From assembly GCA_964276515.1 (NCBI GenBank), contig OZ193910.1, positions 5,270,001 to 5,334,000 of the forward strand: a DNA stretch of 64,000 nucleotides. The letters are read 5' to 3'. The notes beneath the pieces were generated by a model. The model searched no databases and had not been told where the DNA came from. It saw only the letters and a list, made by a program, of their open reading frames with translations. Positions 59,544 to 61,437 of the stretch are shown here, in pieces. The DNA comes from Gordius albopunctatus. Lineage: Eukaryota. Every line of letters starts with the position of its first letter. Positions within the stretch are counted from its first letter, which is position 1. A program made the translations under genes and the position numbers.

Positions 59544-60790
59544 TAAATGAGCAACGTAGACAAGTTGCCAAAAGAAATTCAAAAAGCAGTGAAAATAAAT
59601 AGCAATTAGCAAGAAGTTTGGCCTCTGGCCGGGGTCAGATAAAGTAGAAATAAGCGATGGTCATGATTAATTTAAAAGGAATTATTGAGCCGGTTTCCCA
59701 TCATACGTTATAAAGGGCATGTCCATTATAAACCAACAGGCTGGACAATCTTTAAAAATAATCGTTGAGATTAAGAAATAATGTCGTGACGAGTTCTACA
59801 ATAATATTAAAGGAATGGGTTCGGGCCGGGTCCACACATATTATATTCGAACGCAGTCATTATTTATTTTTAGACAAAAATTTATTCTAAATTGTGGTTT
59901 TCTTTAATATAAAATTCAAATCGCGCGAATTTATTTTTGTCGAAATATTAAAGCGGTTATTGAAGTAAAAATAAAGTTTGATGTCTATATGTTCTACCTT
60001 CTACTTCTATTGTTCTATTTCCGTATAATAGATTAAGAATATATCAAATATAATTGGTAAGTGTTTATTATGCAAAAAATTGTAAACAAATAGTTAAAGA
60101 GGGTCCAAGGACCAGGCCCACCCAAGAGAGAAAACCTGGCCCCATGACCCCCCCCCCAAGGGGAAAATCTTTGGTCCCCTGGCCCTTCAAGCCATTTTTT
60201 AAAAATTTTTTGTAATTAAGAAACAATATCATAATTATAATTATTTGTTTCTGAATAAAACTTTTAATTCTGAACTTAATAATGTCCGAAGAACTGAGAT
60301 ATATCAACATTTATTGGCACTTTGTTAAAAGTATTTTCATTTTTCTCCTTATTTAACCCGCAAAAAATGAGAAAATGGGATTTTTTAATTTATTTAGTCA
60401 CGCAGGAGGGGACACGACCGTCCTATAATAATAATTGACGTGAAAAATAAGCAAAAAATGACTTTGATTTAATGTTTCAAATCGTAAAATGTTTCCATTT
60501 TCCGCAGCATATGCCTACATTTATCACACTCGTTTTAGAAAATACTATATGTGATGTGATACACTTTTACTAAAGTACTGTATATTCAAATTTTCAAAGA
60601 ACACGATGAGGTTGCGTTTGATTGACATTTTAATATACGTCAAAACGTATAAAACAAAATATCTCGAAAACTAAAAGGAATTTTAGGAATCTGAAAAAGC
60701 TATTTTACCCCTGGTAACCTACGGGTAAAGTTTCGCGCGAATCGGGAAGGTAGTTTAAGAATTTAGCCCATACATACATATATACATACA

Positions 60791-61223
60791 ATTTAGAAGA
60801 TAATAACAATCCCTTTCCGGAGTGCCCGCAATTAAATTAAAAGAATACTCTAATTAGCGCAATCTATGGGCAATTTTAATTAGAGACTAATCCCTATCTT
60901 TTTTAGTATGTGACTCGAAAATGATTACAGACATATAACGTTTTCGCTCTTATTAGAGCTCATCAGTATGCCATAGTTAATTTTCTAGTCACACAGTAAG
61001 CGAGATAGGTATATATAATGCAAAAATTAGATTTAATCCATTCTTATGTTGGCTATGAAATAACCCCCATAATTTTGGTAGTAATAATTATTTTATTATA
61101 TTAGAAATTAGTAAATAAATTGCAGGTTAATGATATAATTTAGAAGATAATAACAACCCCTTTCTGTTATTATCTTCTAAATTATATCATTAACCTGCAA
61201 TTTATTTACTAATTTCTAATATA
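60791..61223 (-). mobile_element. Retrozyme / Penelope pseudo-LTR-like non-coding retroelement
   Basis: Flanked by ATATATACATACA direct repeats (60778-60790 and 61224-61236). 28-bp terminal redundancy (60790-60817 and 61137-61164, period 347). Perfect 61-bp inverted repeat (61095-61155 / 61165-61225). Internal hammerhead. Confidence 0.75.
60908..60994 (-). ncRNA. Type I hammerhead ribozyme (variant core)
   Basis: Minus strand: CUGAUGA - GCUCU AAUA AGAGC (stem II) - GAAAAC GUUAUAU GUC, closed by distal stem I GUGUGACUAGAAAAU / AUUUUCGAGUCACAU. There is one extra A after GAAA and proximal stem I is weak. Confidence 0.75.
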
Positions 61224-61437
61224 ATATATACATACACTTTACTTTATATATATAAATTAGAAACCACACACATTTTTTGCGCAACAAAGATTTAGAATAA
61301 GTTTCAATGACAAATCTATTATCGATTTTGGAAGCTATTAGGCTTTGCCTAAAATCGCGGTTTTGTGGCTTAAATTTAAACAATTAAACTCTGGGCAAAC
61401 AATAATTAAAATACTGATCAACAAATAATTGACTTTT

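Follow-up and report, generated by a model that had tools for sequence, protein, structure and literature searches.

The 433-bp insert at positions 60791-61223 of the window (the whole 64-kb stretch of DNA analysed here) is probably a non-LTR retrozyme that a Penelope enzyme copied, the template being either an uncut multimer or a circle. Non-LTR retrozymes have been described across animals, including insects, and Penelope-like elements are regarded as strong candidates for moving them (Cervera and de la Pena, 2020; PMC7229834). More recently, retrozymes have been treated as non-autonomous Penelope derivatives whose mechanism was called open (Li, Clavereau and Pollet, 2026; bioRxiv 10.64898/2026.07.22.740005). 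The class and its link to Penelope are already in print, and the locus contributes one more example, together with a start signal that can be tested, but does not establish a new class. Published support for Penelope as the mover of retrozymes consists of co-occurrence and of relatedness of the end sequences. At this one locus, a head-to-head arm, a candidate tail of ~40 nt and a copy of more than one unit that runs through an intact ribozyme site are the kind of genomic evidence by which enzyme class and form of the template can be told.

The insert is flanked by two identical 13-mers, one at 60778-60790, inside a (TACA/TA)n microsatellite, and the other at 61224-61236, which are likely to be a target-site duplication. 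Most of the insert is a main arm on the minus strand (60791-61164), the 374 nt of which correspond to one 347-nt unit (60818-61164, minus strand; 29% GC, no ORF) plus 27 nt. This redundancy appears as a direct repeat (60786-60817 and 61133-61164) of 32 nt with 94% identity and a spacing of 347; five of these positions are shared with the left 13-mer, leaving 27 nt within the insert. The remainder is an inverted arm on the plus strand (61165-61223) of 59 nt, or 62 nt with microhomology, which covers unit positions 61155 to 61097 and is joined to the main arm 5′ end to 5′ end when read on the hammerhead strand. The two inverted stretches (61094-61155 and 61165-61226) are 100% complementary over 62 nt with 9 nt between them. 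The preliminary description had been right about the ORF-less 433-bp insert and about the inverted copy of its own end; of its 28-bp repeat with 347-nt spacing the spacing stands, the length inside the insert being 27 nt, and its 13-bp target-site duplication holds as regards the identical 13-mers, while the status of a duplication is likely only, the length of the microsatellite being variable among copies of the surrounding repeat. Even when the unit is doubled, no stretch free of stops is longer than 32 codons.

The two arms end at different positions of the unit. The 3′ end of the main arm (60791) corresponds to 61138 in the unit (as far as 61133 if microhomology is counted) and that of the inverted arm to 61097 (as far as 61094), so that the ends lie 36-44 nt apart. 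The stretch between them (61097-61137, minus strand; 41 nt, or 36-44 nt given microhomology) is a candidate for a Penelope-type "tail". Neither end coincides with the predicted ribozyme cut, after which they lie 145 and 186 nt, respectively. Tandem arrays of the unit are absent from the 64-kb window, which holds one diverged fragment of it (55168-55257, minus strand) that matches 60797-60889 at 75% and has no hammerhead. This fragment also starts near the first of the arm-end sites, as a single weak case.

The insert lies within a high-copy repeat that is represented in public contigs, with a left part taken here as 60300-60777, which may hold more than one repeat and has a paralogous stretch at 38927-39046, and a right part at 61237-61286; unique sequence begins near 61287. 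The surrounding repeat contains the microsatellite, a 10-bp inverted pair (60360-60369 and 61271-61280) and T-rich edges, and it resembles the DINE-1/HINE elements as described in PMC4067079. Among the 15 joints listed (83 further), five skip the whole insert. These empty sites are paralogues and not alleles, and they skip 434-448 nt. Skips of 445 and 448 nt fit a single 13-mer at the empty site, and the skip of 434 nt (60789 to 61224) belongs to a paralogue that keeps nearly both 13-mers without the insert. The 13-mers fit a target-site duplication without proving one, since the (TACA/TA)n microsatellite in which they lie varies. An AT-rich (TACA/TA)n microsatellite is also the kind of target used in Penelope-type insertion, as seen here at one site.

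The empty paralogues bear on the idea that the unit is a satellite or another DNA-level repeat, spread by recombination or by rolling-circle copying of DNA, for instance along with the surrounding repeat, with the hammerhead as a passenger. That the surrounding repeat is itself high-copy would suit such spread, and local tandem amplification of Penelope ends has been proposed (Li, Clavereau and Pollet, 2026); however, surrounding-repeat copies that lack the insert exist, matched 13-mers and head-to-head arms mark the insert, and other contigs join the unit to unlike flanks. We regard this explanation as very improbable.

A type I hammerhead core is located on the minus strand at 60930-60972, where Rfam, a strict descriptor, reading by hand and folding converge. 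The Rfam model Hammerhead_HH9 matches 60908-60988 (minus strand) with 27.2 bits (E 0.00092), below its gathering score of 52, and no Rfam family reaches its gathering score in the whole window. The strict type I descriptor has one match in the window and none in 200 dinucleotide shuffles, which bears out the minus-strand core of the preliminary description. In RNA order, helix I (60972-60967 and 60935-60930, GGCAUA/UAUGUC, 6 bp, pair probabilities 0.86-1.0) encloses CUGAUGA (60966-60960), helix II (60959-60956 and 60949-60946, GCUC/GAGC, 4 bp), GAA (60945-60943) and helix III (60942-60937), which is the palindrome AACGUU and is followed by A. Since helix I is formed by GGCAUA and UAUGUC, the cleavage triplet falls at UUA, and the cut is predicted between 60936 and 60935. 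The GUC cut and circle junction at 60930/60929 that had been suggested earlier were rejected, because with a GUC site helix I would be consumed and nothing of it would remain after the cut. Matches to Rfam MIR8001, mir-962 and MIR869 are far under gathering and reflect the perfect hairpin. A relic ORF that would start from the ATG in CUGAUGA, as in PAc, was also discarded, as it meets a stop after 12 codons in the present copy.

The hammerhead fits the canonical metazoan type I build given in PMC4209133, in which helix I has 6 bp, helix II has 4 bp and helix III has 1-2 bp with a palindromic loop, and which works as a dimer. Its weak palindromic helix III is like that of axolotl HHR_Amex1. With helix III palindromic, a dimer is probably needed for cleavage, and a locus with a single hammerhead cannot alone release a unit-length monomer. 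In free co-folding, two hammerheads reach -29.2 kcal/mol versus 2 x -12.6 kcal/mol, the catalytic dimer itself being outside the model; the predicted fold of the monomer mispairs the hammerhead core, and the catalytic shape costs 4.0 kcal/mol.

The minus-strand monomer of the unit is predicted to be strongly structured (z = -5.25, none of 100 shuffles being equally stable), with z values of -4.5 for the circular form and -2.7 for the plus strand. Folding and family variants point to a long stem that extends helix I (60893-61009, minus strand) and has the hammerhead at its tip. A second predicted stem of 9 bp has its 3′ arm at 61118-61126 (minus strand), paired with 60833-60825, and encloses the end position of the main arm in RNA order. 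In run X5, 6155 of a depth of 6280 carry a variant at 61124 by which a G-U pair of this stem becomes G-C.

The family was followed in public contigs aligned to the region from five of ten listed runs (X1, X2, X3, X5 and X7). No RNA data set was among those listed, a result that counts neither way. X1 and X2 belong to organism A and to one study, and may be the window's own source; X5 is from organism B and X7 from organism C. The unit is matched by 2,495 contigs in X1, 1,012 in X2 and 1,542 in X5, which agrees with the earlier proposal of a multi-copy non-coding hammerhead family of ~350 nt, and all 29 of its 29 bins are covered in each of these three runs. The family is evidently large. In X1 the depth summed across the unit is 221,000-1,427,000 compared with 537 on the unique flank, a ratio that is not a copy number. 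In organism B, depth peaks at 766,000-978,000 on the hammerhead and is 525-35,000 over 61022-61164, which suggests that subfamilies have most in common in the hairpin around the ribozyme. X1, X2 and X5 also contain a subfamily with ~13 extra AT-rich bases at 60890/60891, which would lengthen the stem below the hammerhead.

The present copy differs from the majority at five of 19 listed positions, at 60810 and 60818, and by 5-6 nt missing at 61090, or ~2% in all. A copy with one hammerhead and ~2% private changes is likely to be dead offspring. Four of the six variants at paired positions keep or improve the pair and two break it, each being judged singly, and both majority variants in paired positions (60926 and 60994) give Watson-Crick pairs; the four pairs adjoining helix I were assigned by hand and not by the predicted fold. 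The 43-nt core contains one of the 19 listed variants, situated in loop II; for a core of this length ~2.4 would be expected, a difference that is not significant and does not prove selection. Pattern searches gave no relatives in viral contigs. The 113 pattern loci in metagenome contigs were dismissed as chance or bacterial: none of the 113 resembles the unit (BLAST, E 0.01), and helix I does not exceed 2 bp in any of their 23 distinct contexts.

Whether these contigs derive from a unit that closes on itself matters for the most serious alternative, that the insert consists of stacked stumps of an autonomous Penelope-like element and that no dedicated retrozyme exists. The insert would then comprise a 306-nt 5′-truncated copy (61096-60791), a 68-nt copy with tail upstream of it that arose by re-initiation (61164-61097) and a third, inverted copy, and the 347-nt spacing would be an accident of the locus or of a small subfamily. 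Autonomous elements regularly show partial tandems, inverted copies and tails (PMC8557442; PMC3846280), and the arms are explained equally well. The two short pieces share their end position (~61097), and depth falls from the hammerhead towards 61093 and rises at 61094, the pattern expected if copies were 5′-truncated from a fixed 3′ end. In other contigs, 61164 runs on into 60819 (depth 12,854 in X1), loose ends occur before 60826 in 28, 21 and 50 contigs, and 61136-61138 is continuous with a depth of 636,062 in X1 compared with 598 for the junction of the locus itself. However, the join of 61164 to 60819 and the continuity of 61136-61138 are equally expected from stacked stumps.

The two explanations part at the closing join, 61090-61097. 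Contigs that share a 5-6-nt insertion extend across it in four runs that carry two organism labels (four contigs in X1, one in X2, three in X3 and one in X5), as does one 179-nt X7 contig over 60968-61137 with a depth of 3.5. The deepest insertion-bearing contig of X1 has a depth of 8,719, 16 times the flank, and those of X1 and X2 are ~8-16 times the flank. The X7 contig is the only one that demonstrably has at least 31 letters on both sides of the join, records 15 and 16 of X2 stopping at 61103. These few crossing contigs favour closure of the unit as support, not proof, and are the chief argument against stumps. Stumps are also disfavoured by the absence of a reading frame of more than 32 codons, by the 18 loose ends listed, which have no shared ORF-like continuation, although an ORF that runs on from either end may lie among the 574 others, and by the hammerhead, which is of the canonical 6/4-bp type of retrozymes and not of the minimal type with long helix II found in most Penelope elements, although a small palindromic helix III occurs in some Penelope elements too (PMC4209133). 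Taken together, we consider stacked stumps unlikely, and closer to the data than either spread at the DNA level or the fold-back origin discussed below, both of which fit less well.

A dedicated retrozyme unit moved by a Penelope enzyme would account for the layout of the ends. Penelope-like elements are described as having an inverted 5′-truncated copy, an optional tail of 30-40 nt and (TA)n targets (PMC8557442), with arms mostly head to head and target-site duplications of 8-10 bp (PMC3846280). An inverted 5′-truncated copy is present here at the 5′ end, head to head with the main arm. Purified enzyme from Anolis nicks both strands of AT-rich DNA and extends them; it initiates at two sites within the RNA, which delimit the tail, and does not depend on ribozyme cleavage (PMC11167929). 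Circles have been proposed as templates for copying of more than one unit (PMC4209133). Because the main arm passes an intact ribozyme site and exceeds one unit, its template would have been an uncut multimer or a circle and not a cut linear monomer.

The anatomy of the insert, the motif, the multi-copy family and the empty paralogues are direct observations, from which we infer the RNA and enzyme steps as follows. Source loci with at least two units would yield transcripts of the hammerhead strand, in which hammerheads acting in pairs would cleave after UUA; ligation of the monomer to a circle may follow. A Penelope-like RT/endonuclease acting in trans would nick both strands of the AT-rich target ~13 bp apart. 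The first nick would prime copying at unit position ~61138, which would run for 374 nt, and the second at ~61097, ~40 nt further 3′, for 59 nt; both nicks would thus be primed on the same kind of RNA, one per site, and the two copies would finally be joined at their 5′ ends. Evidence from the family for the arm ends is weak. In X1 and X2, two runs of one organism, there is a step up in depth at 61094 by unlike factors (~2-fold in one and ~8-fold in the other relative to the upstream bins), four X2 contigs leave at 61092 with unlike flanks, strand switches at other unit positions occur in four of the 15 joints listed (9 further), and a preferred end at 61138 is absent from the rows listed.

The inverted arm may instead have arisen by fold-back or repair on a true retrozyme unit whose mover was, for example, a LINE, the ~40-nt offset being due to chance. 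The 100% complementary arms with their 9-nt loop are what self-priming gives, self-priming has been discussed for Penelope junctions (PMC3846280), and the window contains an RT fragment that does not look like Penelope. Fold-back leaves unexplained, however, why the 36-44-nt offset matches the published tail and why the depth step and four loose ends fall at the end position of the arm; moreover, the insert has no poly(A) or simple-repeat 3′ end. This origin appears improbable, though less so than spread at the DNA level. As to an enzyme source close by, the Penelope RT/GIY-YIG ORF that had been envisaged was not found within the window: none of its 126 ORFs of at least 65 aa has a GIY-YIG match, and the insert has no ORF.

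In its published features the unit resembles metazoan non-LTR retrozymes, which are described as non-coding units of 150-450 nt with low GC (<50%), a canonical type I hammerhead, a self-paired fold and, when present, a large target-site duplication (>4 bp; the 13-mers here are a likely duplication). Its 347 nt are close to the 330/350 nt of axolotl and to the insect mean of 313 bp. Unlike arrayed retrozymes, the insert has one unit plus 27 nt and a single hammerhead, which makes it a "monomer" and not "active" by the rule of the 2026 preprint. Its inverted 5′-truncated copy and 3′ ends at a spacing near the 30-40 nt described are shared with endonuclease-positive Penelope/Poseidon elements, such as PAc of Anolis (PMC11167929) and the Pen families of Adineta (PMC3846280; overview in PMC8557442), as are the AT-rich or microsatellite target, the hammerhead upstream of the 3′ ends and ends that do not lie at the cut. 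In contrast to those elements, the insert has no RT or GIY-YIG ORF and a period of 347 nt, not ~3 kb, and its 3′ ends, 145 and 186 nt past the predicted cut, lie further away than in PAc (PMC11167929). Non-autonomous Chlamys elements such as MRC1 are similar in that they are short, non-coding and derived from Penelope and have pLTRs and insertions in head-to-tail order, but are found in green algae and are reported without canonical hammerheads (PMC8557442). Searches of openly accessible literature gave no description of retrozyme insertions with head-to-head arms and tails, and the word "tail" is absent from the text of the 2026 preprint.

A more specific version can be offered tentatively and has less in its favour than the general reading: a Penelope enzyme may have copied one closed hammerhead circle from both nicks, starting at two fixed sites that are set by the 9-bp hairpin ~100-190 nt downstream of the ribozyme. 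If this were true, the hairpin would be a sequence-level address by which retrozymes hijack Penelope enzymes, a step left open in print, and a 70-nt signal would be available for testing.

Several other features were noted in the window. A broken hAT/Hermes-type transposase (22939-24759, minus strand) is accompanied by shorter related copies (49975-51065 and 40264-41749), and fragments of retrotransposon ORFs lie on the plus strand at 37870-38841, with an RVT_1 match at 37870, and at 2256-3406, where no Pfam match of note was obtained; the frames of the latter presumably represent the C-terminal part of a LINE with a restriction-like endonuclease. Host exons encode PP2C (18115-18396, plus strand) and the CNH domain of a MAP4K3/5-like kinase (26173-27474, minus strand); the MAP4K exon has 15 matches among 38 candidates, all from Branchiostoma at 56%, as for an animal gene. 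A BAH-domain gene (57259-58462, plus strand) lies 2.3 kb to the left of the insert. Beyond the insert, a 225-bp inverted pair (61438-61662 and 61987-62211) with 78% identity is MITE-like, and its left arm is multi-copy in the public contigs.
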